64,000 nucleotides of DNA, taken from NCBI GenBank assembly GCA_964612415.1, contig CAZTCT010000001.1, forward strand, positions 455 to 64,454, given 5' to 3'. Positions 41,890-57,333 of the stretch are shown piece by piece. How positions within the stretch are numbered: position 1 is the first letter of the stretch; every line of letters begins with the position of its first letter. The notes under the pieces were generated by a model that was given only the letters and a program-made list of their open reading frames with translations, ran no database searches and was not told where the DNA came from. This stretch comes from an uncultured Candidatus Saccharibacteria bacterium (lineage in GTDB: Bacteria; Patescibacteriota; Minisyncoccia; Phycocordibacterales; CAYRGE01). A program made the translations under genes and the position numbers.

Positions 41890-42894
41890 TTATACCATCC
41901 CTGCATGGATATGTTTCTTGAGATTTCTTTGAGATGACCAGAAGGACAGAAGAATAAAACATAGTCCAATTCCTCCAATGAGTACCCCGGGGACATGTAT
42001 CACAAGAGAAGCAAGCATCGCCCCAGAAAGGCCGAGTATTGCCCAGTGTGCGCCATGCTCAAGATAAATGAATGCTTCCAAGATATGCTTGCGCACAAGA
42101 TAGATTGTGATCGTTCGTACAAAGAACGCTCCAATACCAAGACCTGTCGCAATAACAAAAATATTTGATGAAAGTGCGAATGCTCCTACCACGCCATCCA
42201 AAGAAAAAGCAGTATCAAGGACATTAAGATACAAAAAGAGAAAAAGCCCTGTTTGTTCCATGAGCTTTGCTGATGCACCAAGAGCCTGCGTAACTCCCTC
42301 CATAAGAATAAAGAGTACGATACCGAATATTCCTGCGGTAAGGATATCTGCCACATGCTCCCCTGTTGCGACATAAGAGATGCCAAGAAGCACACATAGT
42401 GCAAGGGCTATCTCTACTGCTTCAACACGGCCCCATCGGGTAAGTCTCTCTTCAACAATTTCTATCCAGTGCACATCTTTTCCCTTATTAAAGAAATACT
42501 TCAATGAAACCATGAGGAGAAATGCCCCTCCGAAAGCGCTGATAATGTGGTGCGACCCTAGAAGTAACTCCCCGTACGCAACGGGGTCTTTTACTGCAAG
42601 CATGGTGATAATGACAGGAGACACCCATGCGGCAAGCGCGACTATAAAAATTGGCAACACCACACGCGTACCAAATACGGCAACCCATATACCCCATGTG
42701 AGAAAGCGGTTTTGCCATTTCTCGTCCATCCTTTTGAGAACGCGGGCATTGATAACCGCGTTATCAAAAGAAAGCGTCACCTCAAGTACGGAGAGCATGG
42801 CTGCAAGCACGAATGCATGGAGCCCAAGATAGTAGTAGATGGCCCCAAGCGCCAAAACAGCAATTATTATTGGGAAAATGAAGATGCTCTTCAT
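41890..42894 (-). CDS. TerC/DUF475-family integral membrane protein.
   Basis: 334 aa polytopic protein with the LSFDNAVINA motif. Confidence 0.5.
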   Translation of the reverse strand: MKSIFIFPIIIAVLALGAIYYYLGLHAFVLAAMLSVLEVTLSFDNAVINARVLKRMDEKWQNRFLTWGIWVAVFGTRVVLPIFIVALAAWVSPVIITMLAVKDPVAYGELLLGSHHIISAFGGAFLLMVSLKYFFNKGKDVHWIEIVEERLTRWGRVEAVEIALALCVLLGISYVATGEHVADILTAGIFGIVLFILMEGVTQALGASAKLMEQTGLFLFLYLNVLDTAFSLDGVVGAFALSSNIFVIATGLGIGAFFVRTITIYLVRKHILEAFIYLEHGAHWAILGLSGAMLASLVIHVPGVLIGGIGLCFILLSFWSSQRNLKKHIHAGMV

Positions 42895-42937
42895 GATTCC
42901 CTAAAGTATACCAAAGAGGACCCTTAAAAATTCCAAT

Positions 42938-43013
42938 TGGGGTGCCTATCCGGATTTGAACCGGAACTGAGGGCTCCACAAACCCTAGTGCTAACCATTA
43001 CACCATAGGCACC
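42938..43013 (-). tRNA. tRNA-His (GTG) with an encoded G-1 and CCA.
   Basis: Reverse complement is gGTGCCTATGGTGTAATGGTTAGCACTAGGGTTTGTGGAGCCCTCAGTTCCGGTTCAAATCCGGATAGGCACCCCA. Anticodon loop is UUGUGGA. Confidence 0.85.
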
Positions 43014-43029
43014 ATATTGTTCGCACCAA

Positions 43030-43578
43030 TTAATATTGGGGCGGTTGCTCCGTTATACCAGATTTATGGTTCGCAAGTCTAGCCAGAGCGTACAAAAGAC
43101 TTGAGAGCCGATTGAGATACCGCAATGTCTGCTCTTCCAACTTCACCACACCTTCATCCGAAACCGCCACAACTCGCCGCTCGGCACGCCGCGCAAGAGT
43201 GCGCGCAACATCAAGATACGCACCAAACTCACTGCCCCCGGGGAGGAAAAAGCTCTTGATTGGGGGTAATTCTTTTTCTACTGCATTTACCATTTCCTCC
43301 ACAGTCTCAACTTTCTCTTTCTGGATAATTTTATCAGCACCGGCAACCTGCGCTTGAATGATAAAGAGATTTTGCTGTACTCCGATCAAAATATCTTTGT
43401 AGAATTGTCCATTAGCTTTATACTCATGCGCATTTTTTTGATTGCGACAAAGGCCCAAATAGGAGTTGAGTTCATCGAGCGTACCAAGCGCCTCAGCGGT
43501 AGAAGAACTCTTTGAAATTCGCTGATTGCATCCAAATGTTCCTGTATCACCCTTGTCTCCTTTTCCGGTAAATAACAT
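43030..43578 (-). CDS. ATP:cob(I)alamin adenosyltransferase, PduO/MMAB type.
   Basis: N-terminal MLFTGKGDKGDTG and a helical-bundle body (LDELNSYLGLCR...DVARTLARRAERRVV). Confidence 0.7.
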   Translation of the reverse strand: MLFTGKGDKGDTGTFGCNQRISKSSSTAEALGTLDELNSYLGLCRNQKNAHEYKANGQFYKDILIGVQQNLFIIQAQVAGADKIIQKEKVETVEEMVNAVEKELPPIKSFFLPGGSEFGAYLDVARTLARRAERRVVAVSDEGVVKLEEQTLRYLNRLSSLLYALARLANHKSGITEQPPQY

Positions 43579-43612
43579 GCAAAAAGTATAGCATGGTAAA
43601 AATTACCTAAAG

Positions 43613-43640
43613 AAAAAGCGGCCGATGTGCGTGGCCGCTT
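43613..43640 (-). terminator. Terminator after the glycine-zipper gene.
   Basis: AAAAAGCGGCC-GATGTGCGT-GGCCGCTT. In minus-strand sense the hairpin is followed by UUUUUCUUU. Confidence 0.55.
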
Positions 43641-43661
43641 CCTGAATAGGAAAATGAAAAA

Positions 43662-43988
43662 CTATCGTATGTGGATTTGGATATTAATCCGGGGGCGAGA
43701 ATGTTGCCGATAGTAGTATCTCGGCGGGGATGTGTAGTGGTAACGGACAGAATATCCGGGGGCGTAATACCGTGCTCTTGCAGAGTAACGATAGCGAGCA
43801 TTCCGCTCGGCCTCAACTCCAGCAAGCGCTCCGATTGCCGCGCCCGTGATCGCTGCGTTACGATCGTGTCCGATGGCTTTGCCCACAATGGCTCCGCCAA
43901 TCACCCACTTTGCGATATCGCTCGCAGAAGCAGTGCCTGCTGCTGTGAGGGCAAAAAATCCTAGGCAAAACACCAATATCTTTTTCAT
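43662..43988 (-). CDS. Secreted glycine-zipper (Gly-zipper/17-kDa-antigen-like) protein with a Tyr/Arg-rich tail.
   Basis: Signal peptide MKKILVFCLGFFALTAAGTASA, then GGAIVGKAIG...GAAIGALAGV, then RYRYSARARYYAPGYSVRYHY. Confidence 0.55.
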   Translation of the reverse strand: MKKILVFCLGFFALTAAGTASASDIAKWVIGGAIVGKAIGHDRNAAITGAAIGALAGVEAERNARYRYSARARYYAPGYSVRYHYTSPPRYYYRQHSRPRINIQIHIR

Positions 43989-44151
43989 CTTCAGGTCCTC
44001 CCTGTTGTAATGAACGAATGACTATACCCTTTTTCAATTATATACGAAAATGAGGGTTTTGTCAATCTGGCAATATGGCAATCGCAAAATACAGGCTTGT
44101 CCCACATAAACCATCAATATCCTTGTGGCCAGGGATAATATCTTCGCCGCC

Positions 44152-44172
44152 GTTCAAGTCCTCTCCTGCGCA
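44152..44172 (+). repeat. Inverted copy of the last 21 nt of tRNA-Leu (T-loop plus 3' acceptor strand).
   Basis: GTTCAAGTCCTCTCCTGCGCA on the plus strand is the exact reverse complement of 44221..44241. The 48-nt spacer carries a GCCGG...CCGGC hairpin with U-rich flanks. Confidence 0.8.
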
Positions 44173-44220
44173 AAAATAAAAGTCGCCGGACACATCCGTG
44201 CCCGGCTTCTTAATTTTGTG

Positions 44221-44304
44221 TGCGCAGGAGAGGACTTGAACCTCCATTCCCTTGCGGGAGCTACCACCTCAAGGTAGTGCGTCTACCAGTTTCGCCACCT
44301 GCGC
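44221..44304 (-). tRNA. tRNA-Leu (GAG), long variable arm, CCA not encoded.
   Basis: Reverse complement is GCGCAGGTGGCGAAACTGGTAGACGCACTACCTTGAGGTGGTAGCTCCCGCAAGGGAATGGAGGTTCAAGTCCTCTCCTGCGCA. Anticodon loop is UUGAGGU. Confidence 0.8.
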
Positions 44305-44382
44305 GTAAAGACTACTCTATTATAAAACACTCCTTTCTACAAGATAGCCCACGAGAAAACCCGCCTTCTGGCGGGTTTGTCT

Positions 44383-44874
44383 TTATGCTTTCTGCTCCTC
44401 TGTTTCTGTTGCTTCAGGAGTATCGTTTGTGGGTTCCGTAGCTTCTGCTGGGGCCTCTGCTGCTTCAGCCTCTTTCTCAATTTCTGCCGTAGAAGAGAAC
44501 CCTGCCTTTGAGATGAGCTTGCTTGTCTTGCTTCGGATCTCTTTGGTAGCCTTATCGCGAATGTAGTAGAGCTTCGCGCGGCGAACTTTCGCGCGGCGAA
44601 CGATCTCAATCTTATCAATCACAGGAGAATAGAGCGGGAAGATGCGCTCTACCCCTACTCCACTTGTTACCTTGCGGACAGTGAAGGTAGCGCCAGCTTC
44701 TGAGCCATGCTTCACAGAAAGCACCATACCCTCAAATATCTGAAGGCGGGTCTTATCCTTTTCTTGAATCTTCTGAAACACGCGCACAGTATCACCCGCT
44801 CGGAGCTGAAGCTTTTTGCGAGCGTCGGTATTTACTGGGGTGAATTTAATTGCTGTTGCTGGCATAGTTTTCAC
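44383..44874 (-). CDS. rplS: 50S ribosomal protein L19 with an Ala/Glu-rich C-terminal extension.
   Basis: [60 protein letters not shown] matches L19. The ~45-aa tail reads [19 protein letters not shown]... Confidence 0.9.
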
Positions 44875-44920
44875 TAAAACAGTAGCACTCTAACATAAAG
44901 GCCTTGGCACGGCAAGGCCT

Positions 44921-45652
44921 TTATTTTTCGCCCATTTTGGCGACCGCCTCCTCCATGTCATCTGGGAGAGGAGCCTCAAGTACAAGCTTGTGCCCATCGG
45001 GGTGCACAATGGCAAGGCGCCACGCATGAAGAGCTAGCCGGTGAAGCCCGAGAAGGGGTTCCTTACTTGGTGCGTAGAGACTATCACATACCACTGGGTG
45101 CTCTATTGCTTTCATGTGCACTCGTATCTGGTGTGTTCTGCCGGTCTTTGGATACACCTCTATATATGTACACTCTTCTCCTCTTAAGAGTACCTTGTAT
45201 TCTGTATGCGCTTCTCGTAGGACTCCTCGCGCATGCGAGCCAGCAAGCCTCTTCCGAAAATCGCTTTTACTTCTCCCAATGGGAAGATCGATGGTACCCG
45301 CATCATCTTTTATAACTCCATATACAATCGCCCGATACACTTTCTCGGTGGCTCTCTCTTTAAATGCATTTTTGAGGTGCATGAAGGTATCTTGATCTTT
45401 CGCAATGACGAGTACACCTGATGTGTCTTTATCAAGTCTATGGACAATCCCAGGGCGAAAGATTTTCTCTCCTGAAGTAAGCACTATGGGCTCCCCAACT
45501 TCCTTAATAGATGGATATCGCTCTAGCACCCAGTCAGTAAGTGTCGGCTCGTCTGTTTTTCCATCAGGATGCACCACAAGACCTGCGGGCTTATTGATCG
45601 CAACCAGATTGTTGTCCTCATAAATGACGCCGATTTCCATATGTGCGGTCAT
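44921..45652 (-). CDS. RluA-family pseudouridine synthase.
   Basis: Catalytic motif GIVHRLDKDTSGVLVIA. 243 aa with no S4 domain. Confidence 0.88.
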   Translation of the reverse strand: MTAHMEIGVIYEDNNLVAINKPAGLVVHPDGKTDEPTLTDWVLERYPSIKEVGEPIVLTSGEKIFRPGIVHRLDKDTSGVLVIAKDQDTFMHLKNAFKERATEKVYRAIVYGVIKDDAGTIDLPIGRSKSDFRKRLAGSHARGVLREAHTEYKVLLRGEECTYIEVYPKTGRTHQIRVHMKAIEHPVVCDSLYAPSKEPLLGLHRLALHAWRLAIVHPDGHKLVLEAPLPDDMEEAVAKMGEK

Positions 45653-45692
45653 TATACAGGATTTTATTTGACCAAAAGAAAGGTGTGGGGTT

Positions 45693-45962
45693 ATGATGGC
45701 AAAAGAAGGACATTACATTCATTTTTTGGAGGGTGTTATGTTAGAGAAACAAGACTCCATGCACAGAAATTCATCCCCTGGTCAGATACTTGCTCCGGTT
45801 ATTTTAAGAGCAATACAGACCGGTAGGCCCCAGCGACTTGCGGGTCACCAGAACAAACAATTTCATAGTGCATTTATTGCTCTGTATGGCGCAGAGATCG
45901 AAAAGAGGCGGACAGAAAAACATCGCTCGTTGGAAAAGCTCAGAAATCTACTTGTAGATTAA
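45693..45962 (+). CDS. Hypothetical small protein.
   Basis: 89 aa ORF preceded by an SD-like AAAGGTGTGGGG. No recognisable motif. Confidence 0.35.
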   Translation: MMAKEGHYIHFLEGVMLEKQDSMHRNSSPGQILAPVILRAIQTGRPQRLAGHQNKQFHSAFIALYGAEIEKRRTEKHRSLEKLRNLLVD

Positions 45963-45967
45963 TCTAA

Positions 45968-46177
45968 GTGCAACTGGAGGGACGCGTGATGTCAAAAGAA
46001 GAGATCATTCGAGGGCCTCGCAGTGAACGCGAGATGCTTCAGGGAGGTGGTCGCCCGAAGAGGTACGACCCTGTCACTGGGTTACCACTTCCTGACAACG
46101 CTCAATTGAAATATTTGAAGGCTTCAAAAGCGAACGCAGGCTCCTTGGGCAAAGAAACGCTCATCCAGGAGGACTAA
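45968..46177 (+). CDS. Hypothetical small protein.
   Basis: 69 aa, 5 nt after the previous ORF. No recognisable motif. Confidence 0.35.
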   Translation: MQLEGRVMSKEEIIRGPRSEREMLQGGGRPKRYDPVTGLPLPDNAQLKYLKASKANAGSLGKETLIQED

Positions 46178-46260
46178 AGGCGCTCATCCGAGAAGGTGAG
46201 CTCCGTCGCGATACAAAATCTTCAACAGATTGAATTTAAAAACAATCAAGGGGGATTAAA

Positions 46261-46428
46261 TGTCTTCAAGACAACGTAAGCAATACAGCTTCGGAAGGAG
46301 AAGGAAAATCCGTGACGATCTTTCTACAGACACAGCTCTACTTCTTCTCAGGAACACTCCTGCAGGTGTGGCTGGAGCAATAAATCGCCTTATGGCACGT
46401 TGTCAGCACAGGCATCACAGGCAGTAAC
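46261..46428 (+). CDS. Possible small basic protein (55 aa), not in the ORF track.
   Basis: ATG preceded by the SD CAAGGGGGATTAA. Translation is MSSRQRKQYSFGRRRKIRDDLSTDTALLLLRNTPAGVAGAINRLMARCQHRHHRQ. It overlaps the start of the next ORF in another frame. Confidence 0.25.
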
Positions 46429-46666
46429 ATATCTTGCAACTACAACAAAGAAGGAGCAGTGCAGCATGACAAGTAAAAACTACAGGGACCTTGGTCTGGT
46501 AGAACCAATTGACCATTCTGAAAACACTCTTTCCGGGTCTTCGTACGAAGATGAGCCCCCCCTCAAACAGCCACCCGTTCACAGTGGGACTCTTCATTGC
46601 ACCGACGAAGGACAAGCACGAAGATTTGGGGTAGAAATGTATCCCATAACAATCCCTTTCATATAA
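46400..46666 (+). CDS. Hypothetical small protein.
   Basis: 88 aa ORF followed 25 nt later by a clean intrinsic terminator. Confidence 0.35.
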   Translation: MSAQASQAVTYLATTTKKEQCSMTSKNYRDLGLVEPIDHSENTLSGSSYEDEPPLKQPPVHSGTLHCTDEGQARRFGVEMYPITIPFI

Positions 46667-46691
46667 AAATGAACCCCTTTTAATTACGAAA

Positions 46692-46714
46692 GCCCCGCAT
46701 TGCGGGGCTTTTTG
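46692..46714 (+). terminator. Rho-independent terminator after the small-ORF cluster.
   Basis: GCCCCGC-ATT-GCGGGGC followed by TTTTTG. Confidence 0.65.
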
Positions 46715-46716
46715 TT

Positions 46717-46737
46717 TAGTGGGCGGTACAGGACTTG
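46717..46737 (-). repeat. Direct repeat of the tRNA-Val 3' end, located 150 nt downstream of the tRNA gene.
   Basis: Plus-strand TAGTGGGCGGTACAGGACTTG is identical to 46887..46907, which is the 3' end of tRNA-Val. Confidence 0.8.
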
Positions 46738-46888
46738 GTCACAACTCTGCCTTGCCTTAAGCGGCAGGTCGCTACCCCGCCTCGCGCACGGCCTTCGGCC
46801 GGCTTCGCGCGCTCCGGCTTTCAAGTCCTCCACGCCGCACAAAATAAAAGTCGCCGAATGCTCTCGCATCCGGCTCCTTTATTTTTAG
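46738..46888. other. GC-rich structured non-coding segment between the tRNA-Val 3'-end direct repeats.
   Basis: Contains GGCCTTCGGCC (a UUCG-tetraloop hairpin), GCGCGC runs, a degenerate inverted copy of the tRNA-Val 3' end (GGCTTTCAAGTCCTCCACGCCGCAC), and the AAAATAAAAGTCGCCG...CCGGC spacer that is also seen next to tRNA-Leu. Confidence 0.5.
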
Positions 46889-46961
46889 TGGGCGGTACAG
46901 GACTTGAACCTGTGACCTTCTCGGTGTAAACGAGTTGCTCTACCAACTGAGCTAACCGCCC
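46889..46961 (-). tRNA. tRNA-Val (TAC), CCA not encoded.
   Basis: Reverse complement is GGGCGGTTAGCTCAGTTGGTAGAGCAACTCGTTTACACCGAGAAGGTCACAGGTTCAAGTCCTGTACCGCCCA. Anticodon loop is UUUACAC. Confidence 0.85.
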
Positions 46962-47087
46962 GTGTGATGCTTGTTTCTTATGGTCACGAGAGCTGCGAGG
47001 ACGCTTCGCTATCTCACTCCTCGGAAACCTACATCCCCTATCACCTGCTCGCTTCGCTTGCATCGGTGATTTTGCTTTGCAAATCGG

Positions 47088-47116
47088 ATGAAACACAAAG
47101 CAGTTTGTGTTTCATT
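47088..47116. terminator. Hairpin downstream of tRNA-Arg, a candidate terminator.
   Basis: TGAAACACAAAG-CAGT-TTGTGTTTCA perfect stem with T/A-rich flanks. Confidence 0.4.
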
Positions 47117-47177
47117 TCTACTCCGGACTTCGTCCTGCCTTCCTCCCCGGGAAACTTCCATTTCCCGACCCCTTCCC

Positions 47178-47199
47178 TGTTCGATTCCTCGCGAGGGAA
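47178..47199 (+). repeat. Inverted copy of the tRNA-Arg(TCT) 3' end.
   Basis: Plus-strand GTTCGATTCCTCGCGAGGGAAG matches the sense 3' end GGTTCGATTCCTCGCGAGGGCA of the minus-strand tRNA, 25 nt away. Confidence 0.7.
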
Positions 47200-47224
47200 G
47201 AAAATATACTCCGTTATTTTCTTA

Positions 47225-47296
47225 TGCCCTCGCGAGGAATCGAACCTCGATTAACGGCTTAGAAGTCCGCAGTTCTATCCATTGAACTACGAGGGC
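47225..47296 (-). tRNA. tRNA-Arg (TCT).
   Basis: Reverse complement is GCCCTCGTAGTTCAATGGATAGAACTGCGGACTTCTAAGCCGTTAATCGAGGTTCGATTCCTCGCGAGGGCA. Anticodon loop is CUUCUAA. Confidence 0.8.
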
Positions 47297-47332
47297 GAGG
47301 TTGCCTCACTATACGAGAAAACACACTTAGGG

Positions 47333-47632
47333 TCAATTGCCTGCCTCAAGTAATGCCTGCATGCGAGCAGCCTTCTGCCCGTAATGATCCATTACTTTAT
47401 TGAGCAGATCCACTTTAAGCGTCGTTTCAGTGACAGATTCTGTAGGAGATTCCTGAAAGATAGTCCCGGCATTTACCTGCAAGAAAACATAGACATGCAG
47501 TGCGATCGCACAGAGGAGTGCCGCAGCGAATACTGAAAAAATAATTCTCCAGTCTCGATAGGGCTTAATTGCAAGTCGAGAGGGATCGTCCTGCTCCTCC
47601 TGTTTTTTAATTTTAAACTTTGGGAATTTCAT
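47333..47632 (-). CDS. Hypothetical small membrane-anchored protein at the distal end of the pilMNO operon, a possible PilP analogue.
   Basis: 99 aa. Basic N-terminus, then a TM helix IIFSVFAAALLCAIALHVYVFL. It starts 7 nt after pilO. Confidence 0.45.
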   Translation of the reverse strand: MKFPKFKIKKQEEQDDPSRLAIKPYRDWRIIFSVFAAALLCAIALHVYVFLQVNAGTIFQESPTESVTETTLKVDLLNKVMDHYGQKAARMQALLEAGN

Positions 47633-47638
47633 ACAACT

Positions 47639-48184
47639 TTATTCTTCTTGAGTAGGAGCAACGTAGCTATCCACGCGGACAGAAAAAGTTCCTCTCCAAC
47701 TTGACCCACTCTTACTATCTCCACCTCCTTGGTTAACAAGATTTACACTATTGATATGCGCGTCATAAGGAATATTCTCCAGTAATTCTATGAAGTTCAT
47801 GACCCTCTCAAAGGTGCCTTCTGCCTGCACAGAAAATGAGAGGCTCTTTCCTCCTTCTTCCCTCAGCCCAGATAGGGTTGTCTTTACCCCAATAGCGGTT
47901 CCCCATCCTTCAATGTTCCCAATGAAATCAATTACATCCTCTGGCGTAAGAAATAATGCATCGAGTTCAGACCGTTTGTTTGCTGTTTCTTCGAGGGTTT
48001 TTTTGAATGTCTGAAGGTTCGCACGACGCATGTCTGCTTGAGCCGATTGTTCAAGAATAAGAGAAGATTGTCCAACCTCCTTTTTCACAAAATAGAATGC
48101 CGCCGCGTAGACCCCTCCAAAGAGCACGAAGAGTACTCCCGCGACAATGGTGACATTTTGTATTTTTGTTGGGTGTTTTGCCAT
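47639..48184 (-). CDS. pilO: Type IV pilus assembly protein PilO-like.
   Basis: 181 aa. N-terminal TM helix, then a coiled-coil and ferredoxin-like periplasmic domain. Position after pilN. Confidence 0.5.
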   Translation of the reverse strand: MAKHPTKIQNVTIVAGVLFVLFGGVYAAAFYFVKKEVGQSSLILEQSAQADMRRANLQTFKKTLEETANKRSELDALFLTPEDVIDFIGNIEGWGTAIGVKTTLSGLREEGGKSLSFSVQAEGTFERVMNFIELLENIPYDAHINSVNLVNQGGGDSKSGSSWRGTFSVRVDSYVAPTQEE

Positions 48185-48189
48185 AATAA

Positions 48190-48765
48190 TTATCCCTCTT
48201 GTGTATCTGCCTTAGCGCTGCCAGTGATTCGCATTGTCATGGAGAACTTAATGTCTTGTTCTGAAATGAGAGTATCTAGGGGATAATTCACATCTTCAAA
48301 CAAAGCATCGTTCTCAAGTGCAGTTGCAAAATTCCCAAGCGCTTTTCTGTCCTTGGCGACACCCTGCAAGGAGATCTGCGCCCCCTCTTTCCCACTTGCG
48401 CTATAAATGAAAACAAGGAGTGTGATGTTCCCATTTGGAATTCGTGCAAGCACCTCATTCACCAAGTGGATCGGTGATGGGTCAGGATTTTGGATGCTTA
48501 TCTCCAGCCTCCCCAGCTTCACGTTTGTATCATCTATGACATCGCTTGGGACCACGCCGATCTCCTGAGAGATCATGTCTTCCACCATCTTAAGATCAGC
48601 CGCGGAGATACGTGCTTGTCTTGCTGAAAGTAGATATGGAGGAGCAAGAAGAAGCGTTGAAATAATAAAAAGCAACGCCCCTAGAAAAAGAATTGTCGTC
48701 CACCTCCTGAGGTGGTAGTTTTTAATAATCGCTTGCTTTGTTTTTACTGGAATGAGATTGCTCAT
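48190..48765 (-). CDS. pilN: Type IV pilus assembly protein PilN-like.
   Basis: 191 aa. Short cytoplasmic N-terminus (NLIPVKTKQAIIKNYHLRR) that would bind PilM, then a TM helix and periplasmic domain. Confidence 0.55.
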   Translation of the reverse strand: MSNLIPVKTKQAIIKNYHLRRWTTILFLGALLFIISTLLLAPPYLLSARQARISAADLKMVEDMISQEIGVVPSDVIDDTNVKLGRLEISIQNPDPSPIHLVNEVLARIPNGNITLLVFIYSASGKEGAQISLQGVAKDRKALGNFATALENDALFEDVNYPLDTLISEQDIKFSMTMRITGSAKADTQEG

Positions 48766-57075: not shown

Positions 57076-57147
57076 GCCCTCGTCGTTCAACGGATAGGAC
57101 GCAAGCTTGCGGAGCTTGTAATTGAGGTTCGATTCCTCACGAGGGCA
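57076..57147 (+). tRNA. tRNA-Arg with anticodon read as GCG.
   Basis: GCCCTCGTCGTTCAACGGATAGGACGCAAGCTTGCGGAGCTTGTAATTGAGGTTCGATTCCTCACGAGGGCA. Anticodon stem CAAGC/GCTTG, loop UUGCGGA. Paralogous to the Arg(TCT) gene at 47225. Confidence 0.7.
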
Positions 57148-57180: not shown

Positions 57181-57295
57181 GGGCGCTTATGCCAAGCGGA
57201 GCCATGTTTTGCAAGCTTGCAAAACAGGCGAGCTGGGGTCGAGGAATTTCAATCGCGACGGCGATTGGAATATCCGTGACCACAAAAGACACAGC

Positions 57296-57333
57296 AAAAA
57301 AAACAGCTCATCCGATCGGATGAGCTGTTTTTT
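57296..57333 (-). terminator. Terminator after rpsT; the palindrome is symmetric.
   Basis: AAAAAAAACAGCTCATCCGATCGGATGAGCTGTTTTTT. Confidence 0.75.

Follow-up and report, generated by a model that had tools for sequence, protein, structure and literature searches.

tRNA genes of the window and their trailers

The DNA considered here, called the window below, is a 64-kb stretch of contig CAZTCT010000001.1 with a G+C content of 45.6%. Judged by its sequence, it comes from a bacterium of the candidate phyla radiation (CPR), of Paceibacteria/Parcubacteria type; its ribosomal protein L19 is at most 76% identical to metagenome-bin proteins of that type. ARAGORN recognizes seven tRNA genes in the window. 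Three of them, tRNA-Leu(GAG), tRNA-Val(TAC) and tRNA-Arg(TCT), are followed by copies of their own 3' ends, as an earlier note on this DNA had pointed out, and the arrangement behind these genes, together with its relatives in other CPR genomes, is the subject of this work. When the whole window was scanned for spaced inverted repeats, the copies at Leu, Arg-TCT and Val took the first three places, and all others were plain terminators. Shuffled sequences gave an expectation of 0.00-0.01 such matches per window; between them, the shuffles and the scan rule out chance and generic terminators as the source of the copies.

At the tRNA-Leu(GAG) gene (44220-44304, minus strand; 51.7 bits with the Rfam tRNA model), the last 21 nucleotides (nt), 44221-44241, form the segment that we call a. 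Along the tRNA strand it is followed by T1 (44173-44220, minus strand), a bidirectional terminator-like hairpin with its stem at 44185-44206, a flanking A-run and U-run, and a GGAG/CGAC tandem G.A motif. Next to it lies a' (44152-44172, minus strand), a perfect 21-nt inverted copy of the T-loop, the 3' strands of the T-stem and the acceptor, and the discriminator. The two arms (44152-44172 against 44221-44241) are separated by 48 nt, exactly as had been claimed, with a chance expectation of 0.01 per window. Past a' there is a GGCGGCGAAG-hairpin (44110-44151, minus strand), read by eye, which is possibly a decayed form of the core X found at the other sites. The model of class A cores does not match it, no direct copy stands behind it, and the promoter of the next gene follows directly at 44065-44037. 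The Leu site keeps the a-T-a' part only.

A complete unit of class A is found behind tRNA-Val(TAC) (46888-46961, minus strand; ARAGORN, 71.4 bits with the Rfam tRNA model). Its T1 (46842-46887, minus strand), a terminator-like hairpin at 46853-46874 with a U-run, is homologous to that at Leu: the two spacers, whose kinship the earlier note had recognized, are 76% identical over 71 nt, and both have, on the tRNA strand, the G+C-rich hairpin and subsequent U-run of an intrinsic terminator (44206-44185 at Leu, 46874-46853 at Val). The degenerate inverted copy that had been described here is present at 46820-46841 (minus strand) and is 73% complementary over 30 nt. Its T-arm part (AAGTCCTC) is closer to the Leu inverted copy than to the T-arm of tRNA-Val itself (AAGTCCTGTA), so that the arm need not match the resident tRNA. 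The core X that follows (46738-46819, minus strand; 52.3 bits, E 9e-12 with the covariance model R1 introduced below; fold z -3.6) runs through P1 (3 base pairs, bp), a GGAG/GA internal loop, the P2 hairpin, GGGG and P4 with a conserved G.U pair to a GUGAC end. It is bounded by a direct copy of a (46719-46737, minus strand), which reproduces the tRNA from C56 to its end in 19 of 19 positions. This perfect copy stands 150 nt downstream of the tRNA, as reported, with a length of 19 nt and not 21; the repeat extends to 46708, into an A-tract, with 28 of 30 positions matching. In the fold of the unit, a' pairs with the downstream direct copy and closes X, the two being the 5' and 3' strands of the closing helix P0. 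A further hairpin, T2 (46688-46712, plus strand), scores well as a terminator for the convergent small open reading frames (ORFs) of the plus strand and weakly on the minus strand.

The tRNA-Arg(TCT) gene (47225-47296, minus strand; ARAGORN and the Rfam tRNA model) has a promoter-like site at 47336-47308. Between the gene and its inverted copy lies an A/U-rich mini-hairpin without a G+C-rich terminator stem (47198-47224, minus strand). The inverted copy a' (47179-47197, minus strand) matches 47227-47245 and is 92% complementary when extended to 24 nt; its perfect part, put at 22 nt by the earlier note, measures 19 nt, and it begins 27 nt after the tRNA instead of 25. The core X at this gene is of class B (47002-47178, minus strand), with the blocks GGGGUCGGGAAA..UUUCCCGGGGAGGAAGG and GGUUUCCGAGGAGUGAGAUAGCGAAGCG and a lineage-specific expansion. 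Behind it, read against class B relatives, 7 nt (TCCTCGC; 46995-47001, minus strand) are left of a decayed direct copy. No terminator is predicted across the 263-nt spacer between the Arg and Val genes, and given the promoter-like site upstream, the class B core is therefore probably transcribed, within an Arg-Val co-transcript.

The His, Ser, Arg(GCG) and Lys tRNAs of the window have no copies of their own 3' ends. The earlier note was right on this point, but not in regarding these genes as free of the arrangement: tRNA-Arg(GCG) (57076-57147), like tRNA-Val, has a class A core behind it (57191-57286, plus strand; 66.6 bits and E 9e-16 with R1; fold z -6.6). The tRNA-derived a' of this core is 4 nt only, there is no direct copy, and a terminator comes after it at 57298-57333.

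Recurrence of the units in related genomes

The survey comprised the window and 80 loci (L numbers below) around rplS from other CPR genomes of Paceibacteria type, with 328 tRNAs, ARAGORN being run on all of them. The gene order Arg(TCT), Val, rplS, Leu, His recurs in the loci as listed by ARAGORN. Copies of each tRNA's own 3' end were sought within 320 nt downstream, with upstream stretches as controls. What had looked like an oddity of the window is common in these loci: in about one quarter of the tRNA genes one finds, along the tRNA strand, the tRNA 3' end (a), a terminator hairpin (T), the inverted copy (a'), the core (X) and a direct copy (a), often with a second terminator. An inverted copy is present downstream of 49 of the 328 tRNAs and a direct copy downstream of 59, compared with 2-6 in the upstream controls; at least one unit occurs in 42 of the 80 loci, and both copies in 26. 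The inverted copy always ends in ...TCGAA, and the direct copy mostly begins at C56. The 5' ends of the tRNAs have no exact inverted match longer than 9 nt. The distribution of the units across orthologous tRNAs is patchy: they follow Leu-GAG in 12 of 66 cases, Arg-TCT in 14 of 50, His in 9 of 59 and Val in 7 of 65. The earlier note had considered that such copies might turn up at every tRNA gene; about 15% of the tRNAs have the inverted one, unevenly among orthologs.

The units differ between otherwise comparable tRNA genes in ways that resemble insertion. Behind tRNA-Leu of L018 there is a full class A unit, and a near-identical tRNA-Leu at L048 runs into a plain terminator. The related genomes L055, L062 and L051 differ in the T and X variants that follow one and the same tRNA. 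Units are stacked in tandem at the His and Val tRNAs of L014, at His of L080 and at Arg-GCG of L072, and at L024 a direct repeat of 69 nt spans a and the whole terminator. In three genomes, cargo genes behind tRNA-His form a block that ends in a unit: L032 with two unit-closed blocks containing UbiA-like, dCTP-deaminase-like, GNAT and EamA genes, L081 with three ORFs between two units, and L049 with one ORF. The cargo blocks of L049 and L081 appear to begin with a similar extended -10 promoter module. Pfam searches of the neighbours of the units brought up housekeeping or cargo genes only.

The region behind tRNA-His in L032 (L032:10640-16300, contig CAZXQA010000002.1) is an array of at least seven single-gene cassettes, in which HAD, Ser hydrolase and AAA kinase genes accompany the UbiA-like, dCTP-deaminase-like, GNAT and EamA genes. 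Between the cassettes stands a repeated module of about 100-150 nt (…AAAATCCAGCTT…CCAGAATAATTTTCCTACTCTGGCCCC…CTTATTCTGGTATAGTTT), and T-a'-X-a units are present at two of the junctions.

At L051 a unit sits inside a tRNA gene. The T-loop of this tRNA-Arg(TCT) (L051:5245-5420, VMHB01000002.1) is interrupted by a'-X of class A, with no intact 3' end upstream, and ARAGORN calls the gene only after about 109 nt have been removed. It is one case among about 330 tRNAs, and is either a pseudogene or a gene requiring splicing or two-piece assembly. Seven locus ends (L010, L018, L033, L035, L048, L065 and L076) stop inside a tRNA gene, with the 5' part left, up to model position 51, which suggests assembly breaks at a repeated or variable 3' segment.

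In the window, four plus-strand small ORFs (55-89 amino acids, aa) without a Pfam match lie between the Val unit and an RluA-like gene, at 45690-46690. In other loci that were read (L007, for example), a pseudouridine-synthase-like gene is close behind the tRNA-Val flank, and the small-ORF region may be the remainder of an inserted block. An exact-protein look-up returned two short near-identical contigs only, L001 and L002, from two other samples of the same species. Between the window and L001 (99.3% identical) there are 18 differences, of which none falls in X and ten fall in the adjoining small-ORF region, numbers that are too small for significance; those in the small-ORF region include a 1-nt indel at 46103.

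The conserved core and its closing helix

The cores fall into at least three classes; those of Val and Arg-GCG in the window belong to class A and that of Arg-TCT to class B. Class A has the order AA, P1 (3 bp), GGAG, P2 hairpin, (C)GA, P1', GGGG, P4, GUGAC. Class B combines purine-rich blocks, long and invariant, with two hairpins that show compensatory changes, and class C consists of GACCUUG, a hairpin, CAAGGUGUAC and then a 4-5-bp hairpin with a UGUAA loop. The class C units of L059 and L081 have identical cores and different inner hairpins. Class C modules also occur nested in the P4 loop of class A cores (L014:8727 and L081:2510, minus strand), so the cores are modular. The UGUAA pentaloop of class C is compatible with the U-N-N-R-A pattern of T-loop motifs.

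In a hand-checked alignment of 16 class A copies, 94.8% of the cells are paired, and 31 cells are compensatory compared with 9.7 in shuffles. The covariance model R1 was built from this alignment and, in a search of 1.12 Mb at E <= 0.01, found 52 class A copies. Among them 94.1% of the cells pair, 10 of the 12 pairs vary on both sides, and 95 compensatory cells are counted against 26 in shuffles (0 of 500 shuffles); when the partners are slid by 1-3 columns, only 25-44% pairing is left. The alignment of the R1 copies is fitted to the model and so biased to structure, and the independent 16-sequence result agrees with it. At one pair of P4, 41 of 47 sequences have G.U, at another 13 do, and there are no A.C pairs; the folding strand is therefore the tRNA-sense strand. 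A same-strand tRNA lies no more than 130 nt upstream of the start in 38 of the 52 copies and 131-700 nt upstream in ten, which are second or third units of arrays; three are farther from a tRNA and one is at the start of a locus. A class A core at L066:18441-18512 (34.9 bits) directly follows a 140-aa ORF and its stop codon; the nearest tRNA is 2.5 kb away, and linkage to a tRNA is therefore not obligatory.

The earlier note had proposed that the inverted copy pairs with the tRNA. Among 47 inverted copies, 15 are continuous over at least 17 nt, the Leu and Arg copies of the window being among the longest, and nine are split by an extra hairpin exactly where the complement of the acceptor meets that of the T-stem. 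The part of a' that corresponds to T-loop and T-stem (7-12 bp) pairs with the direct copy in nearly all class A units, and the acceptor part in a minority of them. Where a' is complete, it would make with a the acceptor/T-stem helix of the adjacent tRNA, including G-1:C73 at tRNA-His. The comparison of L051 with its relative L062 is telling. L051 has another tRNA-His gene, whose T-arm differs, yet the former sequence survives in both a' and the direct copy, and these two can pair as before. What has been conserved as the partner of a' is thus the downstream copy and not the tRNA, which speaks against a hairpin for processing of the tRNA.

Several identities for the units were tried and set aside. 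Two permissive Rfam 15 scans, with RtT RNA (RF00391) included, rule out a known RNA family; over the units, the permissive cmscan of the window (42500-48500), L014, L081 and L072 brought up tRNAs and spurious matches to hairpins and nothing else. X is not a tRNA pseudogene or tandem duplicate, as it contains no match to the tRNA model or by ARAGORN and only the 3' end of the tRNA is copied. Nor is it the reverse complement of a convergent tRNA, which was rejected for classes A-C. A few "inverted copies" at L042 are plain convergent tRNAs, and those of L025 and of Arg-GCG in L050 may represent 3' halves of tRNAs in inverted orientation. A guide RNA of TnpB/IscB type was set aside because its guide-like arm would target the resident tRNA gene itself. 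Comparison by eye, which can serve as a lead only, gave no convincing match to hammerhead, twister, HDV-like, pistol or hatchet ribozymes, to RNase P P4, signal recognition particle RNA, tmRNA or Y RNA/Ro sites, or to the L1-binding site and dif/Xer sites. At L014:2655-2821 (minus strand) there is a full-length sub-threshold match to Rfam sX4 (56.7 bits, E 5e-9; gathering score 70), which spans tRNA-Ser and the first 67 nt of its trailer and is probably driven by the tRNA-Ser itself.

Some of the terminators share AAAAYAAWGRAG-hairpin-CGACTWTNTTTT flanks (44173-44220 and 46842-46887 in the window; L055, L080 and L067). The tandem G.A motif (GGAG/CGA) that these flanks contain is the one seen in the P1/P2 arm of class A, and it also occurs at the terminator of the Val tRNA of L067, which has no X.

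A few observations on the surroundings may be added. In the window, tRNA-His (42938-43012) has an encoded CCA end, and the Leu, Val, Arg, Ser and Lys genes have none. The orientation of tRNA-Val relative to rplS and tRNA-Arg(TCT) varies by lineage (L003, L008, L009 and L014 compared with the window), so that a small segment has been inverted repeatedly. The L19 gene of the window contains, at 44573-44601, a 14-mer, TTCGCGCGGCGAAC, perfectly duplicated in tandem 15 nt apart. A metagenome scan with the RluA-like protein brought up no close relative (the top match was 60% identical), and scans of viral contigs with two motifs gave chance-level matches only.

Interpretation and closest known systems

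We read the arrangements of the window as members of a family of compact structured-RNA cassettes that recombine with tRNA 3' ends, and hold this reading with even confidence. As a' and the downstream a pair to close X, a'-X-a is a folded single strand; most likely this would be an RNA made in the direction of the tRNA. In the model we have in mind, modules would be gained and lost, like cassettes, at the segment from the T-loop to the 3' end. A donor ordered a'-X-a-T, optionally with cargo genes, would recombine with a tRNA gene inside the shared segment a, leaving the tRNA intact with the donor's terminator and giving X the old 3' end and terminator of the tRNA. Both partners would thus keep a 3' end and a terminator, and X would be transcribed. 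As for its function, X may, we guess, be an element for the processing or stability of 3' ends that exploits the recognition of tRNA ends. A bolder version, which we entertain only tentatively, is that a'-X-a represents an undescribed small mobile RNA gene of CPR bacteria, whose RNA ends in a copy of the host's acceptor/T-helix and which inserts itself by way of that shared segment behind tRNAs with or without cargo, tRNA 3' ends thereby serving as platforms for cassettes; the interrupted T-loop at L051 would be its extreme form, with a tRNA spliced or assembled from two pieces. Full-text literature searches aimed at the arrangement found no description, with incomplete coverage, so that an earlier description is possible.

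It should be said that a number of observations weigh against the cassette reading. The Leu and Val units sit after a good terminator, with no promoter recognised. The T-arm alone is present in 23 of the 47 inverted copies, and the full acceptor mimic is not general. The class A copy of L066 has no tRNA-derived arms at all. The comparison of filled and empty sites (L018 and L048) is one moderately related pair whose downstream flanks align unconvincingly, and L001 and L002 are identical to the window at the Val unit, with no polymorphism seen within the species. The covariation of class A fits folded single-stranded DNA as well as RNA. Finally, the tyrosine recombinase that one might look for nearby, as the earlier note had advised, did not appear: the box II motif, in one regular expression applied to six frames, was found neither in the window nor in the loci, about 10 kb on each side.

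The earlier note had offered two readings, remnants of att (attachment) sites of small integrative elements and a hairpin for tRNA 3' maturation or protection. The former proves right in outline, given the direct repeat from C56 to the tRNA end, the patchy and tandem occurrence, and the cargo in L032, L081 and L049. In its strict form, however, with leftover attL/attR identity blocks of small or deleted integrase islands and nothing functional between them, we think it improbable. Direct repeats from the T-loop to the tRNA end are indeed like classical tRNA att sites, there are arrays whose older copies decay, and a preprint on tycheposons describes partial tRNAs that flank tRNA-integrated elements and scatter behind them (bioRxiv 10.1101/2020.12.28.424599). 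Yet the inverted copy is a strand of the closing helix, and inert scars would not be expected to enclose a covarying core, with compensatory changes and a conserved G.U pair, that is kept across genomes whose L19 proteins are only 55-76% identical. The class C cores of L059 and L081 are identical though their inner hairpins differ, and the tyrosine-recombinase pattern revealed no integrase remnant in the window and loci. We similarly consider it improbable that the units are recombination sites of folded single-stranded DNA, a'-X-a resembling an integron attC and the tRNA 3' end an attI, with the recombinase encoded elsewhere. The geometry fits, with an ORF and then an imperfect palindrome (a'...a) around a branched centre, and arrays growing from one site in L032, L081 and L049; folding is strand-specific with G.T pairs tolerated; and a GCGAAGC motif, a heptamer that forms a very stable DNA mini-hairpin, recurs in the units by eye. 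We rank this reading below RNA because the cores, in contrast to attC centres, are conserved not only in shape but also in sequence, because class B lies inside a tRNA co-transcript, and because the class A copy of L066 has no repeats; moreover, the unit ends (TCGAA / CGATTCC) do not fit the R''/R' consensus RYYYAAC / GTTRRRY, and the recombinase pattern scan found no intI-like gene.

A maturation, termination or protection hairpin, in which the inverted copy would serve, in the precursor, to bind the 3' half of the same tRNA, is unlikely and poorly supported. The folds of tRNA plus trailer are very stable long hairpins (-84.6 and -60 kcal/mol; z -8.0 and -7.1), and the palindrome is continuous through the terminator. 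Such a device would nevertheless serve only the roughly 15% of tRNAs that have an inverted copy, patchily among orthologs. At Leu and Val, a' lies past the U-run of the terminator. If transcribed, a' would unfold the cloverleaf, its pairing destroying both the T arm and the acceptor. A large number of the copies are incomplete or are interrupted by an additional hairpin, and that of L051 matches the downstream direct copy instead of the resident tRNA. Still less probable, in our judgement, is an intervening sequence of the T-loop, with a'-X behaving like an intron, a' aligning the exons, and the intact 3' end upstream being a later bypass. It would explain why the tRNA-Arg(TCT) of L051 has no intact 3' end before the insert and is found after removal of about 109 nt, and why a' is the exact complement of the stretch from T54 to the 3' end across the T55|C56 junction. 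Against it stand the single case, from a metagenome bin, the complete tRNA that precedes the unit elsewhere, and the lack of an Rfam match over the units, group I introns and ribozymes included; a group I intron of the anticodon-loop kind was rejected likewise, with an insertion point at T55/C56 and no Rfam group I match. Least probable of all is neutral template switching at terminator hairpins, by which palindromes would be extended outward and the upstream flank copied in inverted form. Template-switch correction of quasi-palindromes is an established mutational process, and a-T-a' is a single long quasi-palindrome; the terminators of protein genes in the window, however, have no such extension, and X, the direct copies, the arrays and the cargo would be left unexplained.

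CPR bacteria have tiny genomes, and the route by which they exchange accessory genes is poorly understood; to our knowledge, few mobile elements are recognised in them. If the cassette reading is true, recombinase-less cassettes anchored at tRNA 3' ends would be a testable route of gene gain in a large part of the bacterial tree, and the conserved structured RNA that closes each cassette would amount to at least three new RNA classes. The units also matter for annotation and assembly, with locus ends that fall inside tRNA genes and one unit-interrupted tRNA gene missed by ARAGORN.

It is useful to compare the cassettes with the systems that come closest. The distal repeats of the E. coli tyrT operon (RF00391) each end with a copy of the last 19 or so nucleotides of the tRNA, and an RNA is released from them. 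These repeats and the RtT RNA were reportedly treated by Egan and Landy in 1978 and by Bosl and Kersten in 1991; a literature search for comparison papers on RtT found none. Common to both systems are repeated units behind a tRNA gene that end in a copy of its 3' end. They show no similarity in sequence or by Rfam model, however, and the tyrT repeats are not known to have an inverted copy or a family spread over many different tRNAs.

The likeness to integron cassettes and their attC sites lies in a single site for each cassette, located where the cargo has its 3' end, an imperfect inverted repeat with a variable branched centre, arrays anchored at one site, and strand-specific folding. In L032, L081 and L049 there is indeed one palindromic site at the 3' end of each arrayed cassette. 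The anchor here, in contrast, is a tRNA 3' end and not an attI beside intI: the arrays of these three genomes begin at tRNA-His, and the recombinase pattern found no intI beside them. The sequence of the centre is conserved and can be sorted into classes, and in place of the core sites RYYYAAC ... GTTRRRY the units end ...GGAATCGAA and begin CGATTCC / CAAGTCC.

The tycheposons of Prochlorococcus are tRNA-targeting integrative elements with partial tRNAs flanking and behind them (bioRxiv 10.1101/2020.12.28.424599). With such elements the units share partial tRNA copies that flank the insert, an intact tRNA, older insertions that are pushed outward, and cargo. A direct repeat of the 3' segment on both sides, with an intact tRNA, is found at Val (19/19, 28/30), and 26 loci have both copies. 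In contrast to tycheposons, the units can be as small as about 150-250 nt, have no integrase in or near them by the tyrosine pattern (about 10 kb), and end in a conserved structured core and an inverted copy of the att segment, which are not described for tycheposons.

tRNA-like ends are also known as signals on other RNAs, namely the t-elements of plant mitochondria, mascRNA of MALAT1, viral tRNA-like structures and bacterial YrlA. What the units would have in common with them is a non-tRNA transcript, here a predicted one, with an acceptor/T-arm-like helix. A continuous acceptor and T-stem helix, that is, a tRNA-like minihelix, can be drawn for the 15 continuous copies and, with a hairpin in between, for the nine split ones; the other 23 would offer a T-arm only. 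The putative mimic in the units differs in being copied from the adjacent tRNA gene and in having the T-loop replaced by the core X. We would thus place the units among tRNA-anchored integrative cassettes and tRNA-end-mimicking RNAs at once, with a substantial chance that they are something more distinct.

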